From Minisyncoccia bacterium (lineage in GTDB: Bacteria > Patescibacteriota > Minisyncoccia > SW-4-49-11): a stretch of 64,000 nucleotides of DNA. The notes under the pieces were generated by a model that did not search any database, had not been told where the DNA came from, and saw nothing but the letters and a program-made list of their open reading frames with translations. The stretch spans positions 36,749 to 100,748 of the forward strand of contig JBIKWJ010000003.1 in NCBI GenBank assembly GCA_044356325.1. Reading direction: 5' to 3'. Below, in pieces: positions 20,868-52,298 of the stretch. How positions within the stretch are numbered: position 1 is the first letter of the stretch; each line of letters opens with the position of its first letter. A program made the translations under genes and the position numbers.

Positions 20868-20972
20868 TTGTCCCCCTTCGGAGGGGGCCGCCTGAAAGGC
20901 GGGGGTGGATAAAATATAAACTTGAAGTCTATCCTCCTCCGCCCTGCGGGCACCTCCCCCAAGGGAGGACAA
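20868..20972. repeat. GC-rich mosaic hairpin repeat block R1
   Basis: CCCCCTTCGGAGGGGG, GCCGCCTGAAAGGCGG and CCTCCCCCAAGGGAGGAC modules shared with other blocks. Confidence 0.7.
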
Positions 20973-21066
20973 TATTCTAATTTTATGCTGATATATATAC
21001 AAATTGCCACATGGCACGACCCTTATTGTAGATACAAATCTCAATGGGGGGTTGTTTTTTATATAC

Positions 21067-23445
21067 CTATTTCTTCCCCCAAGACCAAATTTTTTGAATC
21101 CCTAGCCATACAAAACCTAATATTGCGAGGATAATGAGTCCATAGGATATAATCTCAGCAATTACTACATTCCGAGATTTATGATAGCCAAATTCACATT
21201 CTGAATTAGCGGGTAATATTGCCGATTGAGTGAGCCCATTACGCTCAGGTTTGGTATCAATAGTTTTCTCTCCACAAGTCCATTTGAATTGAGGATTATA
21301 AACCTCTGCCACATTCACATTTTGATCCTTATCACCTGTTCTGACAATAGGATTATAGGAAAATGTTGCCACTACCTCATCTCCCGAGACATATTCTTGT
21401 ACCTCAGGCACTTCATAAATACGATATCCCTCTATAGTAGATTTCACCCATTTTAATTCTGATTTCCTCTCTAGAAGATAACAAGCGACCAGATTTCGCT
21501 TTTCCTTGAATCTATCATCACAATAATTATCGTAGTTCGTTGTCACAATATATTTAACATTATTCTCTCGTAGTATAGGAACCCATTCTGGCACAGAATA
21601 TTGAGGTAATATTTTTTCAAAATTATTAAATACTCTCTGATTAATAGCCATAGCTCGCGTATGATTCCAAGCTCCATCATCATCCCGAGTCAAATCGAGA
21701 ATACGATATTCCTGACTAGGATTAAGATTATCGACTAATTTTTTAGCTCTCTCAAAGCCAGGATAATGAGCCTCCATAGAAGGTACCGTATAGAATGTAT
21801 ACATTTTTAGCCCCTGATACCGAGCTGAAACTAATATCATTATCAGGAATACAGGAATAGAAAATACCCCCACCATACGCCATTGCTTTGACTTCATCTC
21901 GCTCACCACATAATACCAAGTAAGCCCACCCAAGATAGCAATACCAAGAGCAAATATCATCATAAATCTACCCGGAGTACGTAGCCCCCAAAAATAAGGG
22001 AAATACTCATTCAATACCCGATATAACCAAGACTTGCTATACCCCAGAGCCAAGTATCCCGCAATACCAGAACCAATCCAAAGAGGAAGTATATATTTGT
22101 TTCGCCTAAACCACAGAATAGATATAATACCAAAACTTGTCCAAATCAACCAAATAATACGATTATCTAGAGGAATATCCTTGAGCGAATATCCAATTTC
22201 CCCCGATACAATACCCTCTTTATTTTGAAGATATACCAGTTCTGTAATAGTAGGAGAATAATAATCTTTTACAAAAGGAACAATACGCTCCTTAGTCTGA
22301 GATTCATCCAATAAACCTGTATTGGCTCGATACCCAAAGAATGTCGGCACCAAAACATGTAGCCCCAATAAACACACAATAATCCATACCCCAGAGAATA
22401 ATCCCAAACGCCGCATTAATTCTCTCTGAGACTTATAATCAATCAAAGCAATACCCAACATAATAATTATCAGAGGAATAACATTGCTAAATACCATAGT
22501 AATCCCTGAAATCAATGTACTCAAAGCCACAATAATACCCAATACCAAAGTCCGATGTATAAGCCCAAACCAATTTGGCTTATGTCTCATCAACCATATC
22601 CAATCATTTACAATCCAAGGAAGCAAAGCATAAGCAATACCGAATTCCACCACACCATTTAATACCGAGAGATAAAATGGATTCAATATATATATAAGCG
22701 TAGCGAGAATTTGAACCCCAATACCACGACTACTTTTTGTCACCTGAGGGAGAATAGCTCTCATCAACTTTATAATACCCACAGCCGCAATACCAATACT
22801 CAAAAGCTGATGAATTTTTATCCCGAGATAAAAGTCCCCCGCCAAGAATGAAAGAATATGAGTGTATAATACCGCCCAATTACTCGTCAATATATTCCAA
22901 GCAAATCCAAATTGATAAAACCATCCAATCCAAAATGTCAAAAAAGCATCAAGATGAACAACTCCTCCCCCCATATCCAAAAAACTATTATGAGGAATAC
23001 CATCTTTAAAGAAATACTTCCCTGACACATAAATAAGAGATATACCCAATATCCCAATAATCCATATATAAATAGGGATTTTGGTGATTTGTTTGTGCCC
23101 CCAATTACCCGCTTTTTCTAAAGAACTCTCTAATCCTTTCCATCGCCATCGCTGCCCACTCCATATTTCACTAAACACCATAATACACATAAGATAAAAA
23201 ACATTCACCGCAAAAGCTTCAGCCAATTTATCTAATTTGAGAGACAAGGCAATAGGAGCGAGTACAAGAAAGGTAATCGCCCCATACCCTGCATATTTAC
23301 CATCTAATCGAAATAATATTACCACTCCAATATATGCCCAGATTAAAGATGACCATATACTTCCCAAAAGCAAAAAAGCAATCACAAAAATTGCAATAAC
23401 AATTGCTAATTTCACCCAATCTAGACCAGTAATTTCTGATTTCAT
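21067..23445 (-). CDS. Large polytopic membrane protein with a C-terminal soluble domain (GT-C-like glycosyltransferase candidate)
   Basis: 792 aa with at least 14 TM helices over about 520 aa, then a roughly 270-aa hydrophilic domain. Confidence 0.55.
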   Translation of the reverse strand: MKSEITGLDWVKLAIVIAIFVIAFLLLGSIWSSLIWAYIGVVILFRLDGKYAGYGAITFLVLAPIALSLKLDKLAEAFAVNVFYLMCIMVFSEIWSGQRWRWKGLESSLEKAGNWGHKQITKIPIYIWIIGILGISLIYVSGKYFFKDGIPHNSFLDMGGGVVHLDAFLTFWIGWFYQFGFAWNILTSNWAVLYTHILSFLAGDFYLGIKIHQLLSIGIAAVGIIKLMRAILPQVTKSSRGIGVQILATLIYILNPFYLSVLNGVVEFGIAYALLPWIVNDWIWLMRHKPNWFGLIHRTLVLGIIVALSTLISGITMVFSNVIPLIIIMLGIALIDYKSQRELMRRLGLFSGVWIIVCLLGLHVLVPTFFGYRANTGLLDESQTKERIVPFVKDYYSPTITELVYLQNKEGIVSGEIGYSLKDIPLDNRIIWLIWTSFGIISILWFRRNKYILPLWIGSGIAGYLALGYSKSWLYRVLNEYFPYFWGLRTPGRFMMIFALGIAILGGLTWYYVVSEMKSKQWRMVGVFSIPVFLIMILVSARYQGLKMYTFYTVPSMEAHYPGFERAKKLVDNLNPSQEYRILDLTRDDDGAWNHTRAMAINQRVFNNFEKILPQYSVPEWVPILRENNVKYIVTTNYDNYCDDRFKEKRNLVACYLLERKSELKWVKSTIEGYRIYEVPEVQEYVSGDEVVATFSYNPIVRTGDKDQNVNVAEVYNPQFKWTCGEKTIDTKPERNGLTQSAILPANSECEFGYHKSRNVVIAEIISYGLIILAILGFVWLGIQKIWSWGKK

Positions 23446-24424
23446 ATATATCTAATTGTATCATTTTTAGGACAATTAGCAACTTACCTACTTATACTAT
23501 AACCATCACTAAATAAAAAAGATGTGGCACAGATAAGGACTAACCCTTCACCACACGATATACATATAATTTATCCCTATACAAGCTTAAACCCACCTAC
23601 AAAGTTGAGGTGGGTAAATTATTGCTTTTTCCTTGTAGGAATATATCTAGCCTGACTATAATATATAGATTGCCAATCATCTTCTAATTGAAGCAGCCTG
23701 CATATTTGTTGTTTATATAAATATAAAGTGAGTGCTTTGTTGTGACAATGAGATTGTTTCAGCTTTTTCATATTAGCCTGTACTCTTTTAATCTCGTTTC
23801 TAATTTCTTGTATCCTCATCAGAAAACCTCCAAAAAAACACCCATCTACAATACCCAAAATGTTGATTTTTGTCAAATAAAAAGCTGTACAAAAAGCCAA
23901 AAATATGTTATTAATATGTTGGTTTTCATTATCAACCCATGACCAAAAACCATCGTTCAAAGTATCCGAGAATAATACTTATTTGTACAATTACAGCAAC
24001 CTTGTGCTTCGCAGTAGCTGCAAATGGGGCCATAAATCCCAAACAAATGCTAATATTGGCGAGTAATAATCTACATAGTTTTATCGATGACAAAACATAC
24101 CCAGATCCAAAAGATCCAAATGCTCAATGCTCAGCTATGACGCAAAGGCCTTGGAATCAAAGGTGGGGACCTTGCTGGAACTAGCGTCACATCACAACAA
24201 TACTCCATCGCAGGCAAACTGCGGTGGTTTTTTCATATATATTATTGACAAAAAATTTCTTAATGACCCAGATTTAAATAATCTCTTTGAACGGATTAAA
24301 TTACAGATACGTATAGATCAAGAAAGAGCAAAGGCAGAACAAGAATCTTTACCTAAGCAACAGGAGTAGAAAACATCAACCCCAAATCTGGCACATCTTG
24401 TGACCAGATTTTTTATTTACAGAT

Positions 24425-24722
24425 TCTGTCCACACCCACCGCAAAGCAGTCCCCCCTTCCACCTACGGTCGACAAGCTGCCGGCGAGGCCTGCCTGCGGT
24501 AGGCAGGGAGAGTTTTGAGGGCTTTCACTTCTAGCCCCCTTCGTAGGGGGGGCTTTCAGTCACCTGTATTTTGTACTAAATTCCCCTCTCTCCCTACGGG
24601 AGATAAATTGAGGGAGGTGGCCAGGCTTTGCCTGACGGGGTGGAGTAGTTTGCACTTTGCTCTTGCCCTTCTGTCCTCCCTTGGGGGAGGTGGCACGGAG
24701 TACTGGGTGTGGACTGTATTTT
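24425..24722. repeat. GC-rich mosaic hairpin repeat block R2
   Basis: Contains modules A, B, C, D and F shared with R3-R13. Confidence 0.75.
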
Positions 24723-24745
24723 TGTTTCTTATCTCCGAACCTAAT

Positions 24746-25896: not shown

Positions 25897-26160
25897 CCAG
25901 CACTCCCTCCACTTCGTAGAGGCGACCTTTCAGTCACCTGTATTTTGTACTAAACTCCCCTCTCTCCCTACGGGTTTACCTCCCGTAGGGGTGGAGATAA
26001 ATTAAGGGAGGTGGCAGGGCGGTCCCTCCCATACTTTAAGTTTGGGAGGGGACGGAGGAGGACTTTTCAGACGGCGGAATGAGGACAAAAACCCCCTACT
26101 CCCCCACAGAATCACTATCTATCTTAGAGCGACTCCCCTGTTTTCGCTGACGATAAAAAG
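25897..26160. repeat. GC-rich mosaic hairpin repeat block R3
   Basis: Modules F and E. The 70-bp module E is identical to 28258-28335. Confidence 0.75.
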
Positions 26161-26236
26161 TATAGCCAAGGTAGCTAATATATATATAATTACAATTTCC
26201 TATGATATAATATAAAGACCATATTTACAAAATACT

Positions 26237-26837: not shown

Positions 26838-27012
26838 GGACTGAGATTTTTGTTCTCCATTCCCCTCTTGAGGGGTGGACAGCTTCGCTGGACGGGGTGG
26901 AGTATTTTGTCCTCCCTCACTAGCACTCTGTCCCTCGCTGGCAGCTTGTCGACCGTAGGTGGAAGGGTGGCACGGAGTGCCGGGTGTGGACTGAGCTTTA
27001 TTCCCCCTCTTC
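26838..27012. repeat. GC-rich mosaic hairpin repeat block R4
   Basis: Modules C, B and A in order. Confidence 0.75.
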
Positions 27013-27030
27013 CTAACCCAATAAAACCCA

Positions 27031-27094
27031 AGATACCCTAGACATAGAATCAAGGTAGTGCCCGAGATAATAATACCAAGATAAAAAATATGAT
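27031..27094 (+). repeat. 64-bp direct repeat, copy 1 (duplicate of the 3' end of the 28272..30518 gene)
   Basis: About 60/64 identical to 28345..28407. Encodes an ...ILCLGYLG... TM segment on the minus strand. Confidence 0.7.
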
Positions 27095-27924: not shown

Positions 27925-28336
27925 TCTGTCCTTTATGTCTGTCCCTGCCTACCGTAGGTATGGCCTCCCTACTCACCTGTCCTCCCTTTTTTAATCCACC
28001 TTGGGTGGAGGGGGTGCCTGCAAGGCAGGGGTGGATGTATTTTGCAATTTGAGCTTTTGTCTCCCTTAGGAGGCTTTCGTCCCTCCTATATTTATTTAGG
28101 AGGGGGAGTACCCGCAGGGGGAGGGTGGATCAAACTCAAAATAAAATACTAAAATAATAACTGAGTTATAAAATTACAATTATCCACCTCCGGCACTCCG
28201 TGCCACCTCCTCCAACTACCTACGGATTTACCTCCCGTAGGGATGGAGTTAAAAAGGAGGACAAAAACCCCCTACTCCCCCACAGAATCACTATCTATCT
28301 TAGAGCGACTCCCCTGTTTTCGCTGACGATAAAAGG
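27925..28336. repeat. GC-rich mosaic hairpin repeat block R5
   Basis: Modules B, D, H and A, ending in the 70-bp module E. Confidence 0.75.
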
Positions 28337-30518
28337 AATACCCTAGATACCCTAGACAAAGAATCAAAGTAGTGCCCGAGATAATAATACCAAGGTAAAA
28401 ATATGATTGAGGTTTGAAGTATAAAGTTAGCTCTAGATCTATACTTCCATCTAGATTCTCCTTGTACATAGACTTATCAAAATTAGCTTTGATATACTCA
28501 GGGTCAATAGTCCATTGATTAGCATAGTCATATACAAGTTTATGGGTGTCTTCAAAGAGGGGTTTTTGGAATAAAATATTTATATCACGCTGGGTAGCAT
28601 ATTTAAATTGTGTATCATTGTAATGTTGAATATTAGGGTTTTGATTATCTAGATAAAGTTTATACTGCTTATTAAATCCTTCTAAAAAGTTTAATTGTGT
28701 ATTATCCTTTATCCCCTTCAAACTAATATTATATTGAGTGATATTGGTTTTAGTAAATGAATATTCTTGATTATCTGGCAGAACTATTTTAGGAGTAAAA
28801 ATTTCATCTGGAACTTTATATAAACTTAAATATTGATTGTCTATAATTTTGGTAACATTCGTAGAGTTTACAATTTCAATCATTTTATTTATATCTTTTT
28901 CTTTATCAAAAATATCTTTACGTATTAAAATATATTTAATATTAGTATTTTGTAATACATTAATATCTTTAGTTTCAACAAATTGTTTTAACAAATCATC
29001 TTGTAAAGAATCATAGTATACAGGATTTTCTCTTATTAGAGTAGCAATAATATCTCTTCCTATATATAATTTTTTATTGGTATCATAAACTCTAAAACCT
29101 CCAGATTCTGGTAAACTTAAAACTTTGTAAAAGTCTTTATCCTCATTTAAATAAGTCACTGTATCTGTATATTCCTGAGGGACATCAAATACATATGATC
29201 CACTATTTGGATAATTATCTTTAGATAATACGACTTCTTTTGTCAAGAATGGATATGAAAATAGTATAACTAAAAAAATAATATATAGACCAAATACATA
29301 TCTAATAGTCTTCTTATTATAGGAAGAGAATATGTATAGAAAAATAATAATAACTGTAATAGGAATTAATACCGAGAATTTATTATCAGGAGAGCGGACA
29401 GCACCAAACAATGATATATTATCAAGTAAAAAAGAATATATCCCTCCAAAGGGGGGTAATGGCCCTTTTGCAAAAAATATACTTATTAACAATATAGTTA
29501 TATACGGTAGTATTTTATGTCTAATAGCCTTTGCTAGAAGGGCAATGGTCATTACAATATATATTGATAATGAACTTAGGATAAACAGAGGCCCATTAAT
29601 ATATGTTGAGAACGTATAAAGACTCTTAGAGGTCCAAGAAGTATATATTGGCCAATGATAGTGTCCCTTCAAAATTGTTAATATGCCACCTTGAACCAAA
29701 TTATTTGTAGAATTAATTAAATTATTGGCAACAAAACTTTGATCTTTAGCCTGTACTAAAAAGGGTATAATAGTTGGCAGTCCTATAATAATTAAAAATG
29801 GAACTATTATTATAGTCCTATTAATAAAACATTTCCACCTAATTTGTGAGAAATGGAATCCTATCAAGATTATAGATAAGAAAATAATAGGAATTACATA
29901 CGTAATATGAAATAAGATAATACTACTTAATAGTATCAGCCATATAAGCCCTATATTACTTATATTTGATTTAATAAGTTTTAAAAGATAATATACAAAA
30001 AGTGGTATAGCACCATAGGAGATATATGATATTGAGAAAAAAATACCATTATTTATATTGCTAATATTAAATGGGTTAACAAAATAAAATAAAGTAGTTA
30101 AAATTATAATAAAGTAATCCTCTCTCTTTAAAAGTTGTTTATTTACGATATACTCATAATATATAAAATATATACCTAAAAATGATAGTATTAAGATAGA
30201 TGTTTGTATAAAAAAATATAGAATAATTGTTGTTTGCCCAAAAGATATTCCTGTTATCGTATGTATTATCATTTGAAATAAATCTGTAACTAAAAATTGA
30301 TATGGATTTACAGCCTGAAACATATCAAATCCATTATAAAAGGGTGGCTTTATAATCAATGAATTATTAAAAAAACTATATGCTGAATTTACCGATAAGG
30401 TATCATGAACTACTAATAAATTGTTTTGTTTAAAATTTAAAAATAGATATCCCGTTATCAATAAACTGAAAAACACAAGCCCTACACAAATGATTATTAT
30501 ATTTTTACTTTTTACCAT
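28272..30518 (-). CDS. Large polytopic membrane protein with a C-terminal periplasmic domain (GT-C-like). Last codons lie in repeat R5.
   Basis: 748 aa with about 13 TM helices, then a roughly 330-aa hydrophilic domain and a final TM. Overlaps the upstream methyltransferase by 14 nt. Confidence 0.55.
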   Translation of the reverse strand: MVKSKNIIIICVGLVFFSLLITGYLFLNFKQNNLLVVHDTLSVNSAYSFFNNSLIIKPPFYNGFDMFQAVNPYQFLVTDLFQMIIHTITGISFGQTTIILYFFIQTSILILSFLGIYFIYYEYIVNKQLLKREDYFIIILTTLFYFVNPFNISNINNGIFFSISYISYGAIPLFVYYLLKLIKSNISNIGLIWLILLSSIILFHITYVIPIIFLSIILIGFHFSQIRWKCFINRTIIIVPFLIIIGLPTIIPFLVQAKDQSFVANNLINSTNNLVQGGILTILKGHYHWPIYTSWTSKSLYTFSTYINGPLFILSSLSIYIVMTIALLAKAIRHKILPYITILLISIFFAKGPLPPFGGIYSFLLDNISLFGAVRSPDNKFSVLIPITVIIIFLYIFSSYNKKTIRYVFGLYIIFLVILFSYPFLTKEVVLSKDNYPNSGSYVFDVPQEYTDTVTYLNEDKDFYKVLSLPESGGFRVYDTNKKLYIGRDIIATLIRENPVYYDSLQDDLLKQFVETKDINVLQNTNIKYILIRKDIFDKEKDINKMIEIVNSTNVTKIIDNQYLSLYKVPDEIFTPKIVLPDNQEYSFTKTNITQYNISLKGIKDNTQLNFLEGFNKQYKLYLDNQNPNIQHYNDTQFKYATQRDINILFQKPLFEDTHKLVYDYANQWTIDPEYIKANFDKSMYKENLDGSIDLELTLYFKPQSYFYLGIIISGTTLILCLGYLGYSFYRQRKQGSRSKIDSDSVGE

Positions 30519-33416: not shown

Positions 33417-33742
33417 TCCCCTGAGGGAGGGGGTGAGAGCAGTCCACACCCGGCACTTTGTGACACCCTTCCACCTACGGTCGACAAGCTGCCAGCGAGG
33501 CCTGCCTGCGGTAGGCAGAGACAAAAAATACCATCCACCCCGTCAGACATAGCCTGCCACCCCTCAAGAGGGGAATTTTTAGGGCAAGTTGCAAATTACA
33601 TCCACCCTCCCCCGTCGCAAATGGGATTTGCTCCTGTCCTCCTCCGTCACCTACGGTGACACCTCCCCCAAGGGAGGACAAGAGTGCAAGTTGCAAAATT
33701 AAATACAGGCGACTGAAAGGTCGCCCCTACGAGAAAGTAGGA
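33417..33742. repeat. GC-rich mosaic hairpin repeat block R6
   Basis: Modules A, B, C, D and F. Confidence 0.75.
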
Positions 33743-34840: not shown

Positions 34841-35030
34841 CATCCACCCTCCCCCTTCGGGTACTCCCTCCTAAGGGAGACAAAAGCTCAAGTAACAAAA
34901 TCCACCCCGTCCAGCGAAGCTGTCCACCCCTCAAGAGGGGAATTTAGTACAAAATACAGTCCTCCTCCGTCACCTACGGTGACACCTCCCCCAAGGGAGG
35001 ACAGAAGGGAAGAAGCTCAGTCCACCCTAT
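34841..35030. repeat. GC-rich mosaic hairpin repeat block R7
   Basis: Modules C and D. Confidence 0.75.
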
Positions 35031-35822: not shown

Positions 35823-37502
35823 ATGTCGGATTCATTTGGATTATTCTTGTCTTATCCTGGGCAAGTTATTAAAAGATATTTATCTCGTGAACGATTTACT
35901 CGAGTTTTTACTATAAGTATTTTCTTGATTATTATTGCTTTGGTAGCGGCTGCAATTTATGCTATTACTTTTGGAGGATTGACTTTTATTAAAACAGATC
36001 AAGAATTGAGAGAAGGTTTTCAATTCTATATTATTCAATTATTTGGATTGCTGATATTTGTTTTAGGATTTGTTAATAGTGTTCTGATTATTGCATCTGG
36101 ATTTGCTCGAAGGAATTATCAGTGGATTGCAATTACTCCATCATTTTCTATCTTAGCTTTTATTCAATTATTTCAGCTTTTGACTTCTAGTCTTTGGATT
36201 TTTTTAGCTATTATTACTCCCGTTTTATTGGCTATTGTGAATTTTACTGGTATTAGTTGGTTTGGATTTGTATTGAGTTTTCTTTTAACTACTGCGTTGA
36301 TTATAACCGCTAGTGTGAGTGGTACATTTTTCTATCTTGTAAGTATTTATATATTACAGGGATTTTCTCAGCTTCTGAAGAGGAATATCGTCACTCAATC
36401 TCGAGCTATATTTATTTTAATTATATTCTCTATTATTGCTGCTATTGGATTATGGCGCACTGCTATTCCTCAAGATTTTGTGCAATTCTTTGATGGGAGC
36501 TCTGTTGAACAGATTGATACCCTTCAAGAAAAATTAATATTCTTGCCTACATTTGGTATTTCTCAAGTTTTACATAATGTTTTATTTGATTCTACTTCAT
36601 TTGGAATTAGATATGTAATAATATTGATTATTCTTTCTCTTGCAGCACTTGTAACTCTCTATGCTCTGCTTCGTATTCAATATTTGTCTATTTGGCAATT
36701 ATTACAGGAAGGTAACTATGTAGCGGATAAAAGTGTTTTTGAGCCTAATTATAAGCCTTATAATTTCCCTTCATCGAGCATTGTGCATACTATTATTGAT
36801 AAAGAATTACTTCTTATTTGGAGAGATAAAAAAAATCTCCTATGGCTTTTGATTGTCATAGCTCTTTGGGGGGCTCAAACTGCTGTGAGCTGGCGTGTTA
36901 CTACTAATGCAGCTTCTTATGCTTATGGAGCAGTCGAAACTATTCCTAATTTTGTTTACCCTTTGATTCTTGCTATTGGATTATACTTTATTAGTGCTCT
37001 TGCCCTCAGATTTGTATTCCCTACTTTTAGTGCTGAGCGAAAAGTAGCCTGGATATTAGGGGTTGCTCCAATTTCTCTTTGGAATATTGCTGTTGGTAAA
37101 TTATTAATATATGCAGGATTATTCACTTTGATTGGGAGTCCTTTGCTTATTGCAAATTTTGTCCTTTTAAATTTTGAATTTTTCCCTGCTGTTATCTATT
37201 GGCTTGTGTTTGGGCTTTCTGTTATCTTGATTGTACTACTTGCTATATTCTTGTCTGTACGATATCCAAATCGTTTTTCTAGCGATCCTGAAACATTATC
37301 TACTACATTACCTGGCCTTGCTTTTACTAGCCTTGCTCTTGGGGGAAGCTTGATTATATCTAATATTATGTATTTGGCTCTCACCACAATAGATTTAGCT
37401 ACACTATTGATGCTATTGATTACTATTCTTAGTCTCTTACTTACGAGTTTGATTTATAGGGCTGCCGAGAAATTTGAATATTCTGGAGAAATTATTGCTT
37501 AG
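35823..37502 (+). CDS. Large polytopic membrane protein, putative ABC permease partner
   Basis: 559 aa with at least 12 TM helices, directly downstream of the ABC ATPase. Confidence 0.5.
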   Translation: MSDSFGLFLSYPGQVIKRYLSRERFTRVFTISIFLIIIALVAAAIYAITFGGLTFIKTDQELREGFQFYIIQLFGLLIFVLGFVNSVLIIASGFARRNYQWIAITPSFSILAFIQLFQLLTSSLWIFLAIITPVLLAIVNFTGISWFGFVLSFLLTTALIITASVSGTFFYLVSIYILQGFSQLLKRNIVTQSRAIFILIIFSIIAAIGLWRTAIPQDFVQFFDGSSVEQIDTLQEKLIFLPTFGISQVLHNVLFDSTSFGIRYVIILIILSLAALVTLYALLRIQYLSIWQLLQEGNYVADKSVFEPNYKPYNFPSSSIVHTIIDKELLLIWRDKKNLLWLLIVIALWGAQTAVSWRVTTNAASYAYGAVETIPNFVYPLILAIGLYFISALALRFVFPTFSAERKVAWILGVAPISLWNIAVGKLLIYAGLFTLIGSPLLIANFVLLNFEFFPAVIYWLVFGLSVILIVLLAIFLSVRYPNRFSSDPETLSTTLPGLAFTSLALGGSLIISNIMYLALTTIDLATLLMLLITILSLLLTSLIYRAAEKFEYSGEIIA

Positions 37503-37555: not shown

Positions 37556-37656
37556 GGAGGACAGTGTATTATGTTCCTGCCTACCGCAGGCAGGCCTCAC
37601 TGGTAGCTTGTCGACCATAGGTGGAAGGGGGACCACGTCAGTGGTGGGTGTGGACA
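37556..37656. repeat. GC-rich mosaic hairpin repeat block R8
   Basis: Module B in reverse orientation, then module A. Confidence 0.7.
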
Positions 37657-37684: not shown

Positions 37685-38059
37685 TTACAACAAAATCTTA
37701 CTCTTAATAAAATCCTCCAGTATAGGGGTTATACTATTTATAGATTTGAGTACTTCTTCATCAGTAAATCGTAACACAGTAAAACCTAAATTTTCTAAAT
37801 ACCTTTGCCTTATTAGGTCATTTTCATAAATTTCAGGGTGATTATGGCTTTCTCCATCTACTTCAATGATGAGTTTTAATTCTAGACAAATAAAATCTAC
37901 AACATATTTACCTATTGGTCTCTGTCTTCTAAATATAACTCCTAGTTTTTTACCTTTTAATATATATTTCCAGAGACTAGCCTCTGCTTTTGTCATTGAT
38001 TTACGAAGTTTGTGAGCAATGGGTTGTAATTGAGAATTATAATTATTATTTTGTTTCAT
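37685..38059 (-). CDS. DUF559 (Vsr-like endonuclease fold) protein
   Basis: YVVDFICLELKLIIEVDGESH...RQRYLENLGFTVLRF matches the DUF559 core. Confidence 0.65.
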   Translation of the reverse strand: MKQNNNYNSQLQPIAHKLRKSMTKAEASLWKYILKGKKLGVIFRRQRPIGKYVVDFICLELKLIIEVDGESHNHPEIYENDLIRQRYLENLGFTVLRFTDEEVLKSINSITPILEDFIKSKILL

Positions 38060-38095: not shown

Positions 38096-38320
38096 CTGTC
38101 CACACCCACCACTAACGTGGTTCCCCCTCGCCAGCGAGGGACAAAAAGCTTTGTCCTCCCTTGGGGGAGGTGCCTGCAAGGCGGAGGAGGATATACCTTA
38201 CCAGCTACCTCCTCCGTCGCAAACAGGATTTGCTCCTGTGAAACCTCACGGTTTCCCAAACCTTCCTACACGGGAAAACTCCCGTTTTCCCGACCCCTTT
38301 CCCGGAGGCAGAAGCTTACC
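38096..38320. repeat. GC-rich mosaic hairpin repeat block R9
   Basis: Modules A, D and G, plus the gcttaccagctaccgcctccg module that extends into the 3' end of the DUF2207 gene. Confidence 0.7.
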
Positions 38321-39944
38321 AGCTACCGCCTCCGCCTCCACCAGAGCCACCACCAGCAGAACCTCCACCAGATGAGGCTGATGACATAGTGGAAGATAAT
38401 GAGCTATCTATACTACTGACAAAATCAGTTGGAATAAATACTACTCCATTATTAGAATGATACCAATCTGGATTGGTTGTAATAAGTCCTTCAAAGGCTT
38501 TTGCCCATACTGTTGCCAGCCCAAGAGCAATGGCAAAAGGTAATATTTCAAAAAATATATATTCTTTTTCTTGGAATTGTAATCTATCTTTTTCTGCTAC
38601 TCTAATATATTCTTCTAGTCCTAGAATATGTTCTAATACTCTTGTCCCCTCTTCTGTTCTCTTTGGGGCATAAAATGCTGAGATAGCGGCCAATATTGCT
38701 AGAATATTTAATGATATTGCAATCCATCCTGAAATAAACACCCCAATAATAAAAGCTAATATGAATAGGCCTACTACTATGACACCTAATATACTTCTTG
38801 GTATATTGGGATTTATTGCAAAATATTGTTTCACCTCATCTCTATATATGCTCTTATATATTATATTAAATTTATCCCCTATATGCTCATCTGTTAAATC
38901 TTTCGTAGTGACAGTTTTTCTCTTACCTTTAAATAATATACCTAATAATTCCTGCTCAAATGGCTTTAATGTTTTACCCTTTGGTATATCTTTGAGGTCA
39001 AATTGAAATATCCCATTACTAAACCATTTCTTCTCTTCTATTTGGGTTATATTGAGTATGCCTTGTTGCGCAAGGGATATAATAGTAGCAGATATCTCTA
39101 CTGGGGTTGAATAAGTGTTCTTGAACCGTATAATTGCAGCTGGGCTCATACCCTTTGGTGCATCATATTGTCTTACTATAGGTGTGCGGATTTTGGGGTC
39201 TCTTGCCCAAGCATTCCAGACAAAATATAATATTAAACTTCCTATGATGAGAATTACCCCCGCAATACTCTTATATATAAGCTCTTGATTCTCTTCCCAC
39301 CAAGTTGGAGGGGTAAGTGTACCAAGTGGAAATCCTATTGCAAAAGTTAACCCTTCTCCCGCTGCAAGTGATTGATTAGATGTTATCTCAATAGTACGAG
39401 CATTTGTCCAAGTAATAGTACAGTCTTGCGCTTTTGATGAAGACATACCGGTATAACAATATAATTTGTCCCCGACTTTGTCTTGTAAATCTTCTGGTAA
39501 TAGAATTGTTGCGGAAGCTTGCTCTATGGGGACTTCCCAGTCAGTTCCTGTTATTTGCCAATATAATTCATCTCTATCTTGGAGTTTTTCGATCACGCCC
39601 TTTACTTGATAGGTAATACTATATTGATTGAGGCCTGTAAGGTATATATCTGCATCTCCTATTTTGATATTAATTTCTCCACCCCGACTAATTTCCTGAG
39701 TTGCCGCCCTCCCATTTTGTAATGCCTGTATATCCCCTTGTATATTAATTCCTTTGAGGGGAATTGTCCGATAAATTCCACGCCTTTCATTTTCTCCAAA
39801 ATCATAGGATATATTCTCCTCTACTTGTATACTCCTATCAGTATTGACTGTAATAGTACTCTTAAAATCTCGTATAGTCTCGGCTGATACCAATACTGGG
39901 AAAATATATAAAACTATTGCGATCAGAGCATATTGAGCTTTCAT
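38316..39944 (-). CDS. DUF2207-like membrane protein with a C-terminal Gly-rich tail
   Basis: Signal peptide, a roughly 200-aa extracytoplasmic domain, TM helices and a C-terminal SGGGSAGGGSGGGGGGSW tail. Confidence 0.5.
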   Translation of the reverse strand: MKAQYALIAIVLYIFPVLVSAETIRDFKSTITVNTDRSIQVEENISYDFGENERRGIYRTIPLKGINIQGDIQALQNGRAATQEISRGGEINIKIGDADIYLTGLNQYSITYQVKGVIEKLQDRDELYWQITGTDWEVPIEQASATILLPEDLQDKVGDKLYCYTGMSSSKAQDCTITWTNARTIEITSNQSLAAGEGLTFAIGFPLGTLTPPTWWEENQELIYKSIAGVILIIGSLILYFVWNAWARDPKIRTPIVRQYDAPKGMSPAAIIRFKNTYSTPVEISATIISLAQQGILNITQIEEKKWFSNGIFQFDLKDIPKGKTLKPFEQELLGILFKGKRKTVTTKDLTDEHIGDKFNIIYKSIYRDEVKQYFAINPNIPRSILGVIVVGLFILAFIIGVFISGWIAISLNILAILAAISAFYAPKRTEEGTRVLEHILGLEEYIRVAEKDRLQFQEKEYIFFEILPFAIALGLATVWAKAFEGLITTNPDWYHSNNGVVFIPTDFVSSIDSSLSSTMSSASSGGGSAGGGSGGGGGGSW

Positions 39945-45092: not shown

Positions 45093-45224
45093 CCCCCACG
45101 AGGGGGGCTTGGTAAAAATATAAAAGAGCTTGAATAGTATACCGATTTTAGATAATTATGTCAATATTACTTTTTTATATTCCCCTCTTGAGGGGTGTCA
45201 TCTTTGATGATGGGGTGGAATGTC
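45093..45224. repeat. GC-rich mosaic hairpin repeat block R10
   Basis: CCCCCACGAGGGGGG hairpin and module C (TTCCCCTCTTGAGGGGT..GGGGTGGA). Confidence 0.6.
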
Positions 45225-45229
45225 CTAAA

Positions 45230-46648: not shown

Positions 46649-46745
46649 ACAAACCGGACGCCTTGTCCTGGGAAACCCTCGGTTTCCCAACCTTCCAACA
46701 CAGGAAACTCCCGTTTCCCGACCCCTTCCCTACTGGTTCGATTAA
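46649..46745. repeat. GC-rich repeat block R11 (module G)
   Basis: GGTTTCCCAACCTTCCAACACAGGAAACTCCCGTTTCCCGACCCC is nearly identical to 38250-38300. Confidence 0.7.
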
Positions 46746-46761
46746 TAATACAAAGGCCATG

Positions 46762-46834
46762 TGGACCGTACTGGGATCGAACCAGCGACCTCTTCCATGC
46801 CATGGAAGCGCGCTACCAACTGCGCCAACGGCCC
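46762..46834 (-). tRNA. tRNA-Ala (anticodon GGC)
   Basis: Cloverleaf folded by hand from the reverse complement. G3:U70 Ala identity pair. Anticodon loop AUGGCAU. No encoded CCA. Confidence 0.85.
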
Positions 46835-47366: not shown

Positions 47367-48203
47367 ATGGTTTCTTTCAAATTACACAATGGTTTTGATC
47401 GGCTTAAGATGTATAATGGATTGATGGGGGCTCTCCACTTCTTCCAAGCTGGATTAATGTTATATATTTCTAAAGAATATTTACTACCTGTATTTACCCA
47501 TTATCTCAAATTTGATGCTGCAAATCGTAGCGCTATACCTATGCCAGTAGAAGAAAAGTTATTTGATGTAAATGTTGGACCAGCTGTTGCTTTATTCTTA
47601 TTATTATCAGCATTAGCCCATTTTATTACAATTTTACCTAATGTGTATCCTTGGTATATCAAAAATCTCAAGAAGCATATTAATGTGATCAGATGGTATG
47701 AATATGCTCTATCATCATCAATAATGATTGTAATAATAGGATTGTTGGTTGGTATTTATGACTTCTCTACTCTCTTATTACTCTTTGGACTTAATGCCGC
47801 TATGAATCTTTTTGGTCTTGTGATGGAGCAAATCAATCAAGATAGAAAAGATGTTAATTGGCTTCCATATATATTTGGATGTATTGCAGGTATAATCCCT
47901 TGGATTGTTATTTTCCTTCATTTCCAAGGAGCTCTTGCTAATGTCGATGTAGATGTGCCAAGTTTTGTATATTGGATTGTATTCTCATTATTTGCAGTAT
48001 TCAATGTATTTGCTATTAATATGTTCCTTCAATACAAAAAAGTTGGGCCTTGGAAATCATATGTGTTCGGAGAGAAAATCTATGTTTTCCTATCCCTATT
48101 TGCTAAAACATTATTAGCTTGGCAGGTATGGTCAGGAACTCTTAGAGGTCGTGAGAATGACGTATCATCTGCTATTAATCATATTATTAACTTAATTTCA
48201 TAA
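47367..48203 (+). CDS. Heliorhodopsin (seven-TM retinal protein, inverted topology)
   Basis: Diagnostic motifs IRWYEYALSSSIMIV, FGCIAGIIPWIV, VPSFVYWIVFSLF and FLSLFAKTLLAWQVWSGTL (Schiff-base Lys). These closely parallel heliorhodopsin 48C12 as recalled from memory. 278 aa. Confidence 0.8.
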   Translation: MVSFKLHNGFDRLKMYNGLMGALHFFQAGLMLYISKEYLLPVFTHYLKFDAANRSAIPMPVEEKLFDVNVGPAVALFLLLSALAHFITILPNVYPWYIKNLKKHINVIRWYEYALSSSIMIVIIGLLVGIYDFSTLLLLFGLNAAMNLFGLVMEQINQDRKDVNWLPYIFGCIAGIIPWIVIFLHFQGALANVDVDVPSFVYWIVFSLFAVFNVFAINMFLQYKKVGPWKSYVFGEKIYVFLSLFAKTLLAWQVWSGTLRGRENDVSSAINHIINLIS

Positions 48204-48226
48204 TTTCAAAGAGAAATTAAAGTACT

Positions 48227-48256: not shown

Positions 48257-48268
48257 AGTATCGAGGAC

Positions 48269-48520: not shown

Positions 48521-48661
48521 AATTTACATTGTTGAAGAAAGATTGCTCTTTCTTGCTAATACTTTATCTCCTGTCGACCTGCCTAAGCCCAGGATTAATA
48601 TCAATATACCATATATGTCAAAATTTGTACAATATTATCCACAATTTAGAGAATAATTGAA

Positions 48662-49606
48662 TTATCCAACCAAAATATCTTGTAAATCAGACACTAAGTC
48701 GAGAGCTTCTACATTTGGTCTTTGAAAAGCATTTCTTCCCATAATAGTTCCAAAAGCACCTCCTTCACGAATAGCTCTCACTTCCTCTTCTAAAGTCTCA
48801 GCATTTGTAAAGTCTCCCCCTGAATGAATAACAATACGATGTCCATTATAGGCGGCCTTCATAACAAGACCTATTCTGTTTTTGAGAGTTTTGGTATTGA
48901 GATTATCATAAATACCAAGTTTTTTATTAGATTCAAGTCCATATCCCTCAAGAGGAAGCTTTACCTTGATAATATGAGCTCCCAAACTAGCTCCAAGTGC
49001 AACTGCATAAGCGATAATGTCTACTGCTCGCTCTTGTCCTGGAATCAGCCCCTCTCCTCGAGGATATATCCATAATATGGTAATTAGTCCGGCCTTTCGA
49101 GCATCAGCTATTAATTCTTTCGCCTGTTGTTCTATTTGATTACTATGTATTGATCCTGGATAAAGAGTGAATCCTACTGCCTCACATCCTAGTCTCACAG
49201 CGTCCCCCACCCAAGAATGAATTGATGGTCGGGGATTTTTCTCATCAGGTATCATCAAATTATGAGAATTTACTTTCAGAATAGTAGGAACATTGTGACG
49301 CGCCAATAATTCAAAACCTCGCTCAAGAGATCCTAGTGGAGCTGCAAAAGCATTGAATCCACCATCTACCGCAAATTGTGCCTGCTCTAGGGGGTCATAC
49401 ATAATAGGATTGGGCTCAAAGGCCCTTCCTGGTCCATGTTCAAGAATTTGATCAATAGGAAGTATCATCAATTTACCGGTACCTCCAATTCTTCCGTGAT
49501 TAAGAATACGTAATAGATTTTTTTGCTGAGCTGGAGTATTGGTACTACGATACCAAGAAATAATTTCCTCCATACGAGCTTTATGTTTGGGTTTTGTAGA
49601 AGGCAT
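48662..49606 (-). CDS. Class I fructose-bisphosphate aldolase (DhnA/FbaB, archaeal-type)
   Basis: DeoC/LacD-family TIM barrel with a Schiff-base Lys in IIKVKLP. 314 aa. Confidence 0.55.
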   Translation of the reverse strand: MPSTKPKHKARMEEIISWYRSTNTPAQQKNLLRILNHGRIGGTGKLMILPIDQILEHGPGRAFEPNPIMYDPLEQAQFAVDGGFNAFAAPLGSLERGFELLARHNVPTILKVNSHNLMIPDEKNPRPSIHSWVGDAVRLGCEAVGFTLYPGSIHSNQIEQQAKELIADARKAGLITILWIYPRGEGLIPGQERAVDIIAYAVALGASLGAHIIKVKLPLEGYGLESNKKLGIYDNLNTKTLKNRIGLVMKAAYNGHRIVIHSGGDFTNAETLEEEVRAIREGGAFGTIMGRNAFQRPNVEALDLVSDLQDILVG

Positions 49607-49616
49607 AAAAATAGTT

Positions 49617-50303
49617 TTAGATATGTTTTTTTGATATTACATTATTTTCACTATCTAAATTATATACCAAAATATCCCCAATAGCAAATTCTACTCCTTC
49701 AATCTCATTATCAGACAAATGATCGAGATATTTTAATATAACTCGCAAGGTATTACCATGTAGAGATAATACAATTTGCTCATTATCTTGTAGAGCTGAG
49801 ATAATATGCCCCTCTAGATAAGGGATTACTCTCTTATAGGCATCATCGAGGCTTTCTGTACGAGGAAGCAAATCCTTAGAAACAGAAATATATTTAGGGT
49901 CTAAATAGGCATTACGAGGATCATCTAATTCTAATTCCGCGGGTCTCGTATAATATCCTCGGCGATAATTATGTAATTGTTCCCAAGATAACTCATCCAA
50001 AATATCTACTTTTGATTTACCTTGTAATTTGCCATAATGCCTCTCATTTAGCCTCCAGTCACGAGTTATCGGGATATTGGTTTGTCCCATTTCCTCTAAA
50101 ATAGTATCTAGGGTTATAATGGCTCTCTTCAATACCGACGTATATGCTCTATTGAATACAAAACCTTTAGTTTTAAGTTTTTGCCCCATTAATCGAGCCT
50201 CCTCCACACCCTCAGGAGTTAAATCAACATCAGTCCAACCTGAGAATAAATTTTGTTTATTCCATAAACTTTGCCCATGCCTTACTAATACCAATTTCTT
50301 CAT
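49617..50303 (-). CDS. gpmA: 2,3-bisphosphoglycerate-dependent phosphoglycerate mutase
   Basis: LVLVRHGQSLWN..FSGWTD motif. Start taken at MKKLV, which gives an ATGA overlap with the xth stop. The tracked upstream start at 50336 is less likely. Confidence 0.8.
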   Translation of the reverse strand: MKKLVLVRHGQSLWNKQNLFSGWTDVDLTPEGVEEARLMGQKLKTKGFVFNRAYTSVLKRAIITLDTILEEMGQTNIPITRDWRLNERHYGKLQGKSKVDILDELSWEQLHNYRRGYYTRPAELELDDPRNAYLDPKYISVSKDLLPRTESLDDAYKRVIPYLEGHIISALQDNEQIVLSLHGNTLRVILKYLDHLSDNEIEGVEFAIGDILVYNLDSENNVISKKHI

Positions 50304-51079
50304 TCTATTATATCTAATTCTAGTACTACAGGACAATGATCAGAACCATATACATCAGATAATATATAGGCATCCCTCACCTTGTCTTTTAATAATTCAC
50401 TGACAAAAAAATAATCTATTCTCCAACCCACATTGCGGTCTCGAGATCGCGTCTTCATATCCCACCAAGTATATAATTCTGGCTTATCTGTTTTGAGTCT
50501 GAGAGTATCTGTAAACCCATATTCTTGAGTTAGTGTATCAAGCCAAGCTCGCTCTTCTGGGAGGAATCCTGAGGTTTTGAGATTGTCTTTTGGGCGAGCT
50601 AAATCTATTTCGGTATGAGCAGTATTCACATCTCCTGTAATAATAATTTGCTTTGTGTGATAATCTATCCCTTTTAAATATTGTAATAAAGCTTCATAGA
50701 ATTTAAGCTTATATCCAAGTCTCTCTGGACCAGAACCTCCATTGGGGAAATAAATATTTATCAAAATAAATTTCTCATAGGTAGCAATTTGAATTCTCCC
50801 CTCTTGGTCAAATATATCATCTAACTTAAATCCTGTTTGTATAGATATTGGCTCAGTTTTGGAGTAAATTGCGACACCACTATACCCTTTGCGAATACCT
50901 GATTCAAAATAAGAAGTATATCCTGGTATATACAAAATATCATCAGTTAATTGCTCCCGATGAGATTTGGTCTCTTGCATACACAGAATATCTGGCTGAT
51001 ATTTTTCCAAAAAGGGCTGGAATAATTCCTTTCTTTGCAATGCCCGCAATCCATTTACATTCCACGATATTAATTTCAT
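50300..51079 (-). CDS. xth: Exodeoxyribonuclease III
   Basis: MKLISWNVNGLRA start, the ...QETK motif and a C-terminal SDHCPV. Confidence 0.85.
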   Translation of the reverse strand: MKLISWNVNGLRALQRKELFQPFLEKYQPDILCMQETKSHREQLTDDILYIPGYTSYFESGIRKGYSGVAIYSKTEPISIQTGFKLDDIFDQEGRIQIATYEKFILINIYFPNGGSGPERLGYKLKFYEALLQYLKGIDYHTKQIIITGDVNTAHTEIDLARPKDNLKTSGFLPEERAWLDTLTQEYGFTDTLRLKTDKPELYTWWDMKTRSRDRNVGWRIDYFFVSELLKDKVRDAYILSDVYGSDHCPVVLELDIIE

Positions 51080-51169
51080 ATAATTTTATGACCTATTGGT
51101 ATTATTATATCATAAAAACATGATATTTAGAATTGTATGTATGGTTTATTTCTGCAAAGTGAGCTTTTT

Positions 51170-51360
51170 GTCCTCCTTCGGAGGAGCTTTAAGTCCCTCC
51201 TATATTTATTTAGGAGGGGGTGGCATGGAGTGCCGGAGGTGGATGTCCGTAGAGTCGGCGACCCCGCCGACATTGGTTTCGTAGAGGCGACCTCTCAGTC
51301 CCTGCATTATCGTAGCGGAGGGTTTATCCCTCCACACGCAACCAATTCCGCTAATTACCC
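51170..51360. repeat. GC-rich mosaic hairpin repeat block R12
   Basis: Modules H, A and F. Confidence 0.7.
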
Positions 51361-51843
51361 TTGACAAAATTAGAGAAATGTGCTATATATCAAACGTTCC
51401 TATCGAGAATCATTATGAGCACTGAATTGGTTGAAATTACTCTTTTGATGAGGCAATCTTTCTTTGACCTTCTATCGTTTATTGAAGAAACGTATGGCCA
51501 GCCAAGAGAAGAAGCAATTCATGGATCTGTAGGTCTTTATGCCCGAAATAGAATTGAATCAAAAAAAGGAAATCGGTTAGCTTCAATACGCCATAATAAT
51601 ACTATTGTGAGAGCATATGAAGAGATTCAGAGTAATAACCTCACCCAATTAATTGAACTTAGACTTTGTGTACATGAATCTTTTGCTGAGGCGCTACAAT
51701 TGCTTGCATATAATGATAGAAAAACAAGGCCAGAAATACTACATAAATCTGTAAACCTATATGCAGAATATATGGCTGATTTAAAAAAAGGATATAGATT
51801 AGCTTCAATAAGATCTGATAATTCTATTGAAACAATCTATTAA
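51361..51843 (+). CDS. Hypothetical protein with two tandem repeats of about 62 aa (possible tandem ribbon-helix-helix)
   Basis: The repeats ELVEITLLMRQSFFDLL...GNRLASIRHNN and QLIELRLCVHESFAEAL...GYRLASIRSDN are clearly homologous. The real start may be the internal Met (MSTELV...). Confidence 0.4.
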   Translation: MTKLEKCAIYQTFLSRIIMSTELVEITLLMRQSFFDLLSFIEETYGQPREEAIHGSVGLYARNRIESKKGNRLASIRHNNTIVRAYEEIQSNNLTQLIELRLCVHESFAEALQLLAYNDRKTRPEILHKSVNLYAEYMADLKKGYRLASIRSDNSIETIY

Positions 51844-51936
51844 GATGTATCTTCATACATCTTCCAACCCTGGTAACCCAGGGTTTTTTCTTTTTCATAC
51901 AATCTACTTTTGTTTCAAAACACAAACACTATAGGC

Positions 51937-52298
51937 TAGTGAGGGGGCGTGGAGTTCTGTCTCCCTTTGGAGGGAGTACCCGTAGGGGGAGGGTGGATTT
52001 GTTTTTAACATATTAAATAATTAAAACTCTATCCACCTCCGACCTGACGGCCACCTCCTCCAAAGGAGGACATGATAGAATTAGAACCCTCCGCTACAAA
52101 ATACCGTCCTCCTCCGTCACCTTCGGTGCCACCTCCCCCACCTGTCTGCCATAGGTAGAAGGTAGGACAGTATTTCTGTCCCTGCCTGCCGTAGGCACGG
52201 CCTCGCTGGCGAGGGTGCCCGCAGGGTGGGTGTGGACTGAGCTTAGATTCCCCTCTTGAGGGGTATCAGGCTTACCTGACGGGGTGGAGGTAATTTTT
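51937..52298. repeat. GC-rich mosaic hairpin repeat block R13
   Basis: Modules H, D, B, A and C. Abuts the hisS stop codon. Confidence 0.75.

Follow-up and report, generated by a model that had tools for sequence, protein, structure and literature searches.

GC-rich mosaic blocks in a Minisyncoccia genome

The 64,000-nucleotide stretch analysed here (positions 36,749 to 100,748 of JBIKWJ010000003.1; hereafter the window) belongs to a 109-kb metagenome contig (JGI 3300037508) of a Minisyncoccia bacterium. Between its genes lie GC-rich blocks built of short hairpin modules, described here as a family of repeat elements; one pair of inverted repeat arms in these blocks encloses a gene for a DUF559 endonuclease. 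Inspection of the sequence (the original prediction) had suggested GC-rich mosaic repeats at 13 loci, about 3 kb in total. This was borne out by a 40-nt sliding GC scan, which gave an island at each of the 13 loci, and by searches for direct and inverted repeats. The blocks sum to 2,878 nt, or 4.5% of the window, with a GC content of 53.9% against 34.3% for the window as a whole.

Among the direct repeats, the copies of a 45-nt unit at 33636 and 34959 are identical, and those of a 56-nt unit at 24454 and 33466 share 96% identity. Inverted matches of 61–81 nt, 85–95% complementary, connect 24427 with 37576, 26933 with 33440 and 26848 with 34894. Repeat matches of 45–81 nt within 64 kb are not a chance occurrence, and nearly all of the repeated GC-rich DNA is confined to 20.9–52.1 kb of the window. 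The recurring modules are 25–100 nt long, form hairpins and are combined as mosaics. Most of them end in the hexamer TCCACC/GGTGGA, which occurs 47 times in the window, 25 of these inside the blocks. Each module had been described as an imperfect palindrome; recurring hairpin modules were indeed found, but not all of them are palindromic over their full length, most consisting of two short hairpins with conserved ends.

An assembly artefact, named in the original prediction as a possible refutation, is excluded because independent assemblies agree base for base. Across 50297–55589, a stretch with repeat blocks 12 and 13 (Table 1), four assemblies made from different samples show 100% identity, and at 32–40 kb three are identical. 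The organism is present in time-series lake metagenomes (JGI 3300037508, 3300043803 and 3300044636).

Architecture of the hairpin arms

The basic arm (type D in Table 1) is ~42–55 nt long. On its G-rich strand it runs from a fixed hairpin, 5′-(A)TTCCCCT-CTTG-AGGGG, through a second hairpin of free sequence to a fixed G-rich tail, CGGGGTGGA(TGTATTT). Sister arm types in the window, designated A, E, F and H, have this layout in common and differ in sequence. Arms stand alone, as inverted pairs forming 81–96-bp elements that resemble MITEs (miniature transposable elements with inverted repeats), or as inverted pairs around a DUF559 gene. The complete element, two arms in inverted order, reads 5′-TTCYCCTCTTGAGGRG..hairpin..GGTGGA, a 3–10-nt spacer, and TCCACC..hairpin..CYCCTCAAGAGGRGAA-3′. 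Fifty arm pairs lie within 900 bp of each other; most span 81–151 bp with inverted arms of ~40 nt, and so combine the terminal inverted repeats, small size and non-coding character by which MITEs are defined. A covariance model (R1) built from arms of several phyla and run on the window recovered five strong D arms (48–68 bits), and its weaker matches within blocks fall on other module types with the same layout of two hairpins and a G-rich tail.

Between the invariant ends we counted 102 distinct central sequences, all of which form hairpins. At stem positions 3–7 of these, 90–93% of the pairs are Watson–Crick, with all four pair types represented, whereas G–T pairs account for ~2.6% and A–C for ~1%; a G·A mismatch near the stem base is kept in 74 of the 102. 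When 34 arms are aligned gap-free, covariation is seen in five of the six pairs of the central helix. Paired cells make up 95.7%, compared with 82.8% after shuffling (none of 500 shuffles reached 95.7%) and 38–51% with slid partners. The 3-nt loops, read on the G-rich strand, are GNA in 26 cases (GAA in 15, GTA in 9) and TTC in two. C-GNA-G triloops are an unusually stable type of DNA mini-hairpin, d(GCGAAGC). Together, the GNA triloops and the near-absence of wobble pairs point to a hairpin that would act in the single-stranded DNA of one strand, rather than to RNA.

That the blocks might be structured as RNA had been raised as a possibility, and this was not upheld. Besides the ~2.6% of G–T pairs in the stems, orientation relative to flanking genes is unbiased overall (148 copies) and in Patescibacteria, which argues against a role as terminator or untranslated region, and copies within open reading frames (ORFs) are read in several frames. 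With Rfam, only tRNAs pass the gathering threshold, and at E ≤ 10 there are merely weak matches to Whalefall-1 (RF01762). No intron was matched, which speaks against a group II intron fragment, another suggested refutation; a composite family of palindromic elements, similar to MITEs or repetitive extragenic palindromic (REP) sequences and outside the RNA-family libraries, was supported. The F module (34959–35004, 38151–38192 and 20931–20972) aligns to Whalefall-1 over its whole length at about half the gathering score, and from this alignment Whalefall-1 may be a sister arm type of the same superfamily.

Association with a DUF559 endonuclease gene

The product of the window DUF559 gene matches Pfam PF04480 with E = 2.4e-32 (111.5 bits against a cut-off of 20.6) and the solved DUF559 structure PDB 3HRL with E = 6.3e-23. 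Its two flanking arms are inverted, of type A and 91% complementary. The gene had appeared in the original prediction merely among those bracketed by repeats. Long elements of 445–570 bp carry a DUF559 gene of ~125–160 codons between their arms, and DUF559 adjoins arms in 11 of 119 loci, where the proteins are 52–80% identical to the query and come from differently labelled phyla.

For a test independent of the repeats, we searched for proteins with one arm-flanked DUF559 as query. The search returned at least 985 clusters, the best 120 of which are 72–84% identical to the query, so that the clade is very large and homogeneous. Five homologs were then picked by protein alone, chosen for sitting on long contigs, and arms flank all five in a single layout: ATG, a translated arm (TCCACCCCG-hairpin-CCACCCCTCAAGAGGGGAA), the DUF559 domain, and a second arm with the stop codon in TTC CCC TCT TGA. 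Furthermore, 97 of the best 120 homologs begin with an arm-encoded peptide, and 93 of them end in FPS or FSS, with the stop codon in the arm. The ends of transposase genes in insertion sequences overlap inverted terminal structures in a similar way.

Three of the five chosen homologs lie directly after the stop codon of rpoD, and we examined this site in 80 metagenomic relatives. About 60 of them lack both arms and DUF559, and a dsbA-like gene or a plain terminator comes next after rpoD. Two relatives (L140, L180) carry an arm only, and five (L126, L130, L132, L136, L172) carry arms and DUF559 right after the stop. Compared across relatives, these patterns have the appearance of insertions at a preferred site, and the two arm configurations found at the rpoD stop suggest independent insertions. 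A separate observation concerns several of the empty sites, where the terminator consists of an A-run, a CCCCC-loop-GGGGG hairpin and a T-run and resembles the fixed hairpin of the arm.

Distribution across phyla

A scan of one genome per species was performed with a probe consisting of TTCCCCTCTTGAGGGGT, a 14–20-nt gap and GGGGTGGA (25 fixed bases; five copies in the window). It gave at least 118 matching stretches, where we estimate a chance expectation of ~0.01 for the scanned collection. Among the matches listed, those in Patescibacteria fall in metagenome-assembled genomes (MAGs) labelled Nomura-, Paceibacteria, Minisyncoccia and Saccharibacteria. Outside this group, matches occur in complete Kapabacteria chromosomes, Ignavibacteria, a Bacillota MAG with contigs of up to 531 kb, a 277-kb Fibrobacteria contig, Nitrospirota and Brocadia. 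The labels of further MAGs (Hyphomicrobiales, Burkholderiales, Desulfobulbaceae and possibly Thermotogaceae) are doubtful, because their GC content misfits the named taxon.

The case for several phyla is therefore based on the Kapabacteria and Ignavibacteria (complete chromosomes, and copies within type IX secretion system (T9SS) proteins), the large Bacillota contigs and the 277-kb Fibrobacteria contig. Presence outside Patescibacteria is secure, because the Ignavibacteria copies sit in T9SS sorting domains, a Bacteroidota-type feature. A scan of viral contigs gave zero exact matches, and hence no sign of phage carriage.

In the Bacillota MAG (WRLT01), 19 cases are informative; in 18 of them the gene on the tail side (GGGGTGGA) of the arm shares the arm's G-rich strand and points away from the arm, an 18:1 bias. 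It was also observed in this MAG that an A-run precedes solo D arms (L007, L018, L031, L041, L052, L056 and others) and that extra GACGGGGTGGAAAG half-copies often follow them.

Insertions inside genes

Long ORFs contain 27 of the 148 copies, with at least five frames or strands in use (STPSRKRATPQEGN, HPPRQ..TPQEGN, EPPLKRGI, HPSRGEL, IPLLRGG.. and NSPLEGW), and the peptides from in-gene copies include SPLEEYPLGGGG and TPQEGN. What is conserved is thus the nucleotide sequence and not a peptide. Searched against NCBIfam, the inserted peptides gave no match at E ≤ 1. The elements inside genes are 81, 84 or 87 bp long.

Host proteins that score above curated cut-offs (Pfam, NCBIfam) are KsgA/RsmA, Tgt and IF-2. 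A PurD host ORF reached 202 bits against a cut-off of 288 bits, because the ORF is a fragment, and further hosts were recognised as a FAD oxidase, a type III methylase and proteins with T9SS sorting domains. The insertions in KsgA, Tgt, IF-2 and PurD, all from Patescibacteria, measure ~28 aa. Compared with solved structures, an extra segment of ~28 residues lies between residues 184 and 223 in KsgA and between residues 202 and 240 in Tgt. In two Ignavibacteria ORFs (L067 81–1397 and L083 5208–7445), an arm is inserted in-frame inside the C-terminal T9SS sorting domain (…FGEKE-STPSSLRDATPQEGN-LRIDVS…). The covariance model found no in-gene D arm within the window itself, and the in-gene copies come from related loci. 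As a side observation, the Tgt ORF (L047 5238–6533) holds a second insertion of ~31 aa relative to solved structures, at residues 101–133, upstream of the arm-pair insertion.

Gene ends and insertion hot spots in the window

At two places the repeats had been thought to supply the C-termini of genes, at 28272..30518 and 38316..39944. Both tails turned out to be native and duplicated beside insertions, so that the direction is the reverse of the one proposed. The Gly-rich tail of 38316..39944, ...GGGGGGSW*, is the gene's own. A 13-bp direct repeat, CTTACCAGCTACC, stands on both sides of the H element next to it; the second copy (38315–38327) holds the true stop codon of this DUF2207 gene, and the first copy is a GGGSW* remnant of the DUF2207 end. 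Since the flanking repeat contains the stop codon, H was inserted at the extreme end of the DUF2207 gene.

The other case concerns a 748-aa protein. The ‘70-bp module’ of the original prediction is part of an identity between 26078–26173 and 28254–28349 that is neither GC-rich nor palindromic; it is a duplicated gene end, encoding the final 25 residues of the protein, in which lies a C-terminal membrane anchor (...YFYLGIIISGTTLILCLGYLGYSFYRQRKQGSRSK...). The 3′ end of this gene is present three times, intact at 28254–28401 and as remnants a′ and c′ (Table 1), which bound PemK and DUF3800 cassettes. In a related MAG (L104 1–3300, L073 2150–4566), this gene end recurs as a ~90-bp piece that bounds each of two PemK-like cassettes. 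The cassettes look to have been inserted site-specifically at the end of the 748-aa gene. In both cases the gene ends were duplicated by insertions, and the repeats therefore donated no codons. No antitoxin gene is visible adjacent to PemK.

The idea that the blocks mark insertion hot spots was supported, in that they are variable sites beside accessory genes at which modules and cargo differ between orthologous spacers. A related Paceibacteria MAG, 72–76% identical to the window in nucleotides, carries different modules in its orthologous spacers. The spacer between the histidyl-tRNA synthetase (HisRS) and phosphatase genes differs between the two in its modules, and the cargo ORFs are unrelated; where the window has a 30-bp spacer at 54086–54116, this MAG has ~420 bp of modules. 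Small cargo genes at block sites in the window encode Fic, PemK, DUF3800, a YhcG nuclease and a 160-aa product (51361–51843), to which an NCBIfam scan added nothing.

A proposed mechanism and its alternatives

Three points go beyond the original prediction: the spread over several phyla, the in-frame insertion in housekeeping genes, and the coupling to a DUF559 endonuclease gene. We lean, with somewhat better than even confidence, towards reading the blocks as stacks of selfish hairpin elements that work at the DNA level, the DUF559-bearing form being autonomous, its nuclease acting on the arm and host repair doing the copying. We infer the DUF559 nuclease to be the mobilising enzyme: an arm folded as a cruciform, or as a hairpin in single-stranded DNA, would be its recognition target and the place where it nicks or cuts. 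Single arms, arm pairs and genes between arms would then be copied or moved elsewhere by the repair and replication machinery of the host. The new sites would lie after stop codons, at terminator-like hairpins, at other arms and, occasionally, in-frame within genes; terminator hairpins may be a preferred target. Repeated insertion at the same sites would produce the mosaics, where other small cargo genes would also collect.

A bolder proposal is a new class of prokaryotic mobile element in which arm–DUF559–arm would be the autonomous member, with a Vsr-like PD-(D/E)XK nuclease on strand-specific DNA hairpins as its sole protein and arm-only derivatives across phyla that would remodel essential Patescibacteria proteins in-frame. 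We put this forward tentatively, as possible rather than probable.

Several observations weigh against DUF559-driven mobility. The window DUF559 is only 36–40% identical to the arm-fused clade and is not itself fused to its arms. Both arm orders, R-gene-L and L-gene-R, occur around the gene, which is not what one would expect of a rigid transposon. No DUF559 was present near the solo arms of Bacillota, Thermotogaceae-labelled genomes and Kapabacteria in the fetched loci, and no target-site duplication is evident at D/E-type ends in the arm-pair loci. At the window DUF559 locus all assemblies are identical at the strain level, so that no transposition event was caught. The orientation bias in WRLT01 could be an insertion bias, or could mean a domesticated or host-level role in that lineage. 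Finally, we know of no transposon driven solely by a PD-(D/E)XK nuclease, Vsr-fold enzymes being known as repair nickases and homing endonucleases.

Some of these points would be met if the arms were REP- or MITE-like sequences moved by another enzyme (for example a Y1 transposase of the RAYT/IS200 type) and DUF559 were a homing endonuclease gene that invades palindromic arm pairs. Vsr-fold homing endonucleases exist, reportedly among them I-Bth0305I (EDxHD family) and the ‘fractured genes’ endonucleases. In a review of PD-(D/E)XK enzymes, the VSR/DUF559 clade includes a homing endonuclease from a group I intron. The place of DUF559 in the middle of both L–R and R–L pairs is as expected if the palindromic junction is the homing site, arm-only states are seen at the rpoD site, the fetched loci of genomes rich in solo arms have no DUF559 nearby, and strand-specific hairpins without target duplication resemble IS200/IS605 and REP biology. 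We nevertheless consider this explanation unlikely. The scan of window ORFs, which covered ~40 of the 79 with at least 70 aa and all large ones among them, turned up neither a Y1 transposase nor TnpB, a DDE transposase or an integrase. Among the genes that recur next to arms, of which the larger clusters were annotated, there was no conspicuous transposase-like family. Start and stop codons are built into the arms in ~80% of DUF559 homologs, just as transposase genes overlap terminal repeats, and the ~60 empty rpoD sites lack arms, so that arms and gene are mostly absent or present together there.

A function for the host, with the modules as terminators, mRNA stabilisers or small regulatory RNAs (Whalefall-1-like) conserved for the sake of neighbouring genes, appears improbable to us. 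It would account for the T-run that often follows the fixed hairpin on the C-rich strand, for the window copies that come right after stop codons (HisRS, peptidyl-prolyl isomerase (PPIase)), for the 18:1 bias in the Bacillota MAG upstream of co-oriented genes, and for the layout of two hairpins and a G-rich tail that Whalefall-1 shares; E. coli REP elements do stabilise mRNA. Yet orientation is unbiased overall and in Patescibacteria, copies inside ORFs use several frames and both strands, G–U pairs, common in RNA helices, are lacking in the stems, Whalefall-1 is matched with 19 bits where its gathering threshold is 37, identical ends stand beside unrelated genes in unrelated phyla, and termination needs no blocks of 5–8 stacked modules. 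Still further from the evidence is an integron-like cassette array at 24.4–28.4 kb, with the structured repeats as attC-type sites of a site-specific recombinase. Single-gene units (Fic, PemK, DUF3800) are indeed separated by structured repeats here, and duplicated 3′ ends of the 748-aa gene flank cassettes both in the window and in the related MAG, suggesting site-specific insertion. We rejected this reading as highly improbable, since no integrase occurs among the ORFs scanned, the cassettes are not co-oriented (Fic -, PemK and DUF3800 +), the duplicated boundary is a gene end (a′/c′) and not a GC-rich module, and the same modules stand singly beside housekeeping genes and inside genes elsewhere.

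Relation to known systems

The element family is apparently previously undescribed. In the literature that we searched, the core 14-mer is nowhere printed, Patescibacteria are not connected with palindromic, MITE or REP elements, and searches on DUF559 and repeats returned no description of these elements. The closest parallel to the in-gene copies is offered by the Rickettsia palindromic elements (RPEs), for which in-frame palindromic insertion was described (Ogata et al. 2000, 2002, summarised in PMC10969869) and which that 2024 review still treats as special to Rickettsia. Both are short palindromic selfish DNA in AT-rich reduced genomes with no known transposase, and both occur in-frame in unrelated housekeeping genes as well as between genes, the RPE peptide being tolerated in loops. 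RPEs are ~100–150 bp long, whereas the elements here have 81–96 bp and two 42-nt arms. RPE families are defined by a conserved peptide; here the nucleotide ends are conserved and at least five frames are used, which places these elements outside the RPEs. Unlike RPEs, they are found in several phyla and have long forms with a built-in DUF559 gene.

With REP sequences and bacterial interspersed mosaic elements (BIMEs), and with the REP doublets (REPINs) of Enterobacteria and Pseudomonas and their REP-associated tyrosine transposases (RAYTs), the family has in common GC-rich imperfect palindromes of 20–45 nt, many copies, mosaics of alternating orientation, and inverted doublets around a small gene thought to mobilise them, without target duplication. 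The flanked gene of the RAYT systems is a Y1 HUH transposase, whereas here it is a PD-(D/E)XK DUF559 nuclease, and no Y1_Tnp was detected in the scanned window ORFs. The fixed GTAG head of REPs is not present; GTAG occurs mostly within C-GTA-G loops. In contrast to REPs, the arms have two hairpins with one stem of free sequence, copies lie inside genes, and the arm ends are common to several phyla rather than species-specific.

Bacterial MITEs (Correia, ERIC, Nezha and others) likewise have terminal inverted repeats, lengths below 200 bp, many copies and longer gene-carrying relatives. Unlike them, the present family has no DDE transposase parent that we could find, the long form in the position of a parent encoding DUF559, which is not known as a transposase; its D/E type shows no target-site duplications (only H has a 13-bp direct repeat), and its ‘terminal inverted repeat’ is a structured unit of two hairpins that also exists alone. 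Kinship with IS200/IS605-type elements, including palindrome-associated transposable elements (PATEs), is conceivable, in that the hairpins, the strand bias of loops and the lack of an evident target duplication would fit; neither TnpA nor TnpB was found in the scanned window ORFs. Vsr-fold homing endonucleases and the DUF559 protein 3HRL are similarly small Vsr-like PD-(D/E)XK nucleases, the homing enzymes being encoded by selfish DNA. In contrast to those homing enzymes, the gene here is not in an intron or intein, and its ends are embedded in hairpin arms. Whalefall-1 has a comparable C-rich/G-rich hairpin with a (C)UUGG loop, a variable hairpin and a G-rich tail ending in GAGGAC; it is an RNA described from a metagenome only, whereas the elements here probably act at the DNA level, and the window scores 17–19 bits against its gathering threshold of 37.

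Patescibacteria (candidate phyla radiation) genomes are tiny and streamlined, yet ~4.5% of the window would be selfish hairpin DNA. If the reading as selfish DNA-level elements is true, they represent a second and much broader case of a phenomenon so far considered peculiar to Rickettsia, and how cells tolerate or use in-frame insertions becomes testable beyond that genus. DUF559 is, moreover, a concrete candidate enzyme open to biochemical testing, which RPEs never had. For MAG annotation the blocks are of practical concern, as they give rise to spurious ORFs of high GC content, extend DUF559 genes artificially at the N-terminus and show up as apparent protein ‘insertions’, and they may act as contig break points.

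Inventory of the window

The blocks and associated features are listed in Table 1, with covariance-model scores in bits for D arms. Further copies of the H element occur in related loci (L087, L025, L051, L104).

Table 1 Repeat blocks, arms, gene-end remnants and the DUF559 gene in the window, with letters denoting module types.
Feature	Position	Strand	Content and context
Repeat block 1	20868..20972		Weak D-like two-hairpin arm 20869–20911 (17.3 bits) and F-like unit 20927–20971
Repeat block 2	24425..24722		A, B/C, G, degenerate D 24606–24646 (26.6 bits), F-like; between convergent gene ends
Repeat block 3	25897..26077		G module and two-hairpin arms; Fic gene on one side, PemK on the other
a′	26078..26173	-	Duplicated 3′-end remnant of the 748-aa gene, encodes YLGYTFYRQRKQGSRSKIDSDSVGE*; not a hairpin module
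Repeat block 4	26838..27012		D arm 26858–26903 (G-rich strand +, 63.7 bits), then reversed B and A modules
c′	27023..27087	-	Second 3′-end remnant of the 748-aa gene, FYLGIIISGTTLILCLGYLGF, transmembrane anchor
Repeat block 5	27925..28253		C, D4-type, E-like and A-type arms; from DUF3800 to the 748-aa gene
Repeat block 6	33417..33742		A, B/C, D arm 33532–33577 (-, 68.3 bits), E-like, F 33636–33680, G
Repeat block 7	34841..35030		E arm 34842–34885, D arm 34899–34944 (-, 67.9 bits), F unit 34959–35003 identical to 33636–33680
Repeat block 8	37556..37656		C, B and A modules; final 33 nt (37624–37656) are the stop-codon-side (low-coordinate) arm of DUF559
DUF559 (Vsr-like PD-(D/E)XK) endonuclease gene	37685..38059	-	124 aa; inverted A-type arms on either side
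Repeat block 9a	38096..38209		Start-codon-side (high-coordinate) arm of DUF559 38097–38129, F-like unit 38151–38196, first 13-bp repeat CTTACCAGCTACC 38197–38209
H element	38210..38314		~105 bp, two strong hairpins, z = -5.75; at the extreme 3′ end of DUF2207
Rest of block 45093–45224	45093..45115		Ordinary-looking terminator hairpin, judged by eye
Solo D arm	45178..45221	+	Just 3′ of the PPIase gene; 51.8 bits
Second H element	46649..46745		Beside the 3′ end of tRNA-Ala 46761–46834
Repeat block 12	51170..51360		F-like and A-type arms, two ‘hairpin + CTAC’ units; upstream of the 160-aa cargo ORF
Repeat block 13	51937..52298		E arm 51955–51998, F-like units, C/A modules, D arm 52246–52290 (48.1 bits); right after the HisRS stop

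The two ‘hairpin + CTAC’ units of block 12 (51250–51330), GGCGAC..GTCGCC-CCTAC and GTCGGCG..CGCCGAC-TCTAC, are GC-rich and also lie upstream of a cargo ORF in a related MAG (L087, 3685–3745). Read on the opposite strand they are REP-like, with a GTAG head, and may form a separate small family.

Two further regions of the window stand out. Just past tRNA-Asn (55368–55442), a stretch of 56% GC at 55526–55949 has no similarity to the modules and looks foreign; a 113-aa ORF in it (55617–55958, -) gave no NCBIfam match. The paralogous duplications at 5980–10141 are AT-rich, with 90% identity over 300 nt and over 222 nt and 93% over 134 nt; they span a run of small genes without Pfam match and are unrelated to the GC-rich family. 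The window also carries a heliorhodopsin gene at 47367–48203 (Pfam E = 1e-93), and the host genome is apparently of Paceibacteria type.

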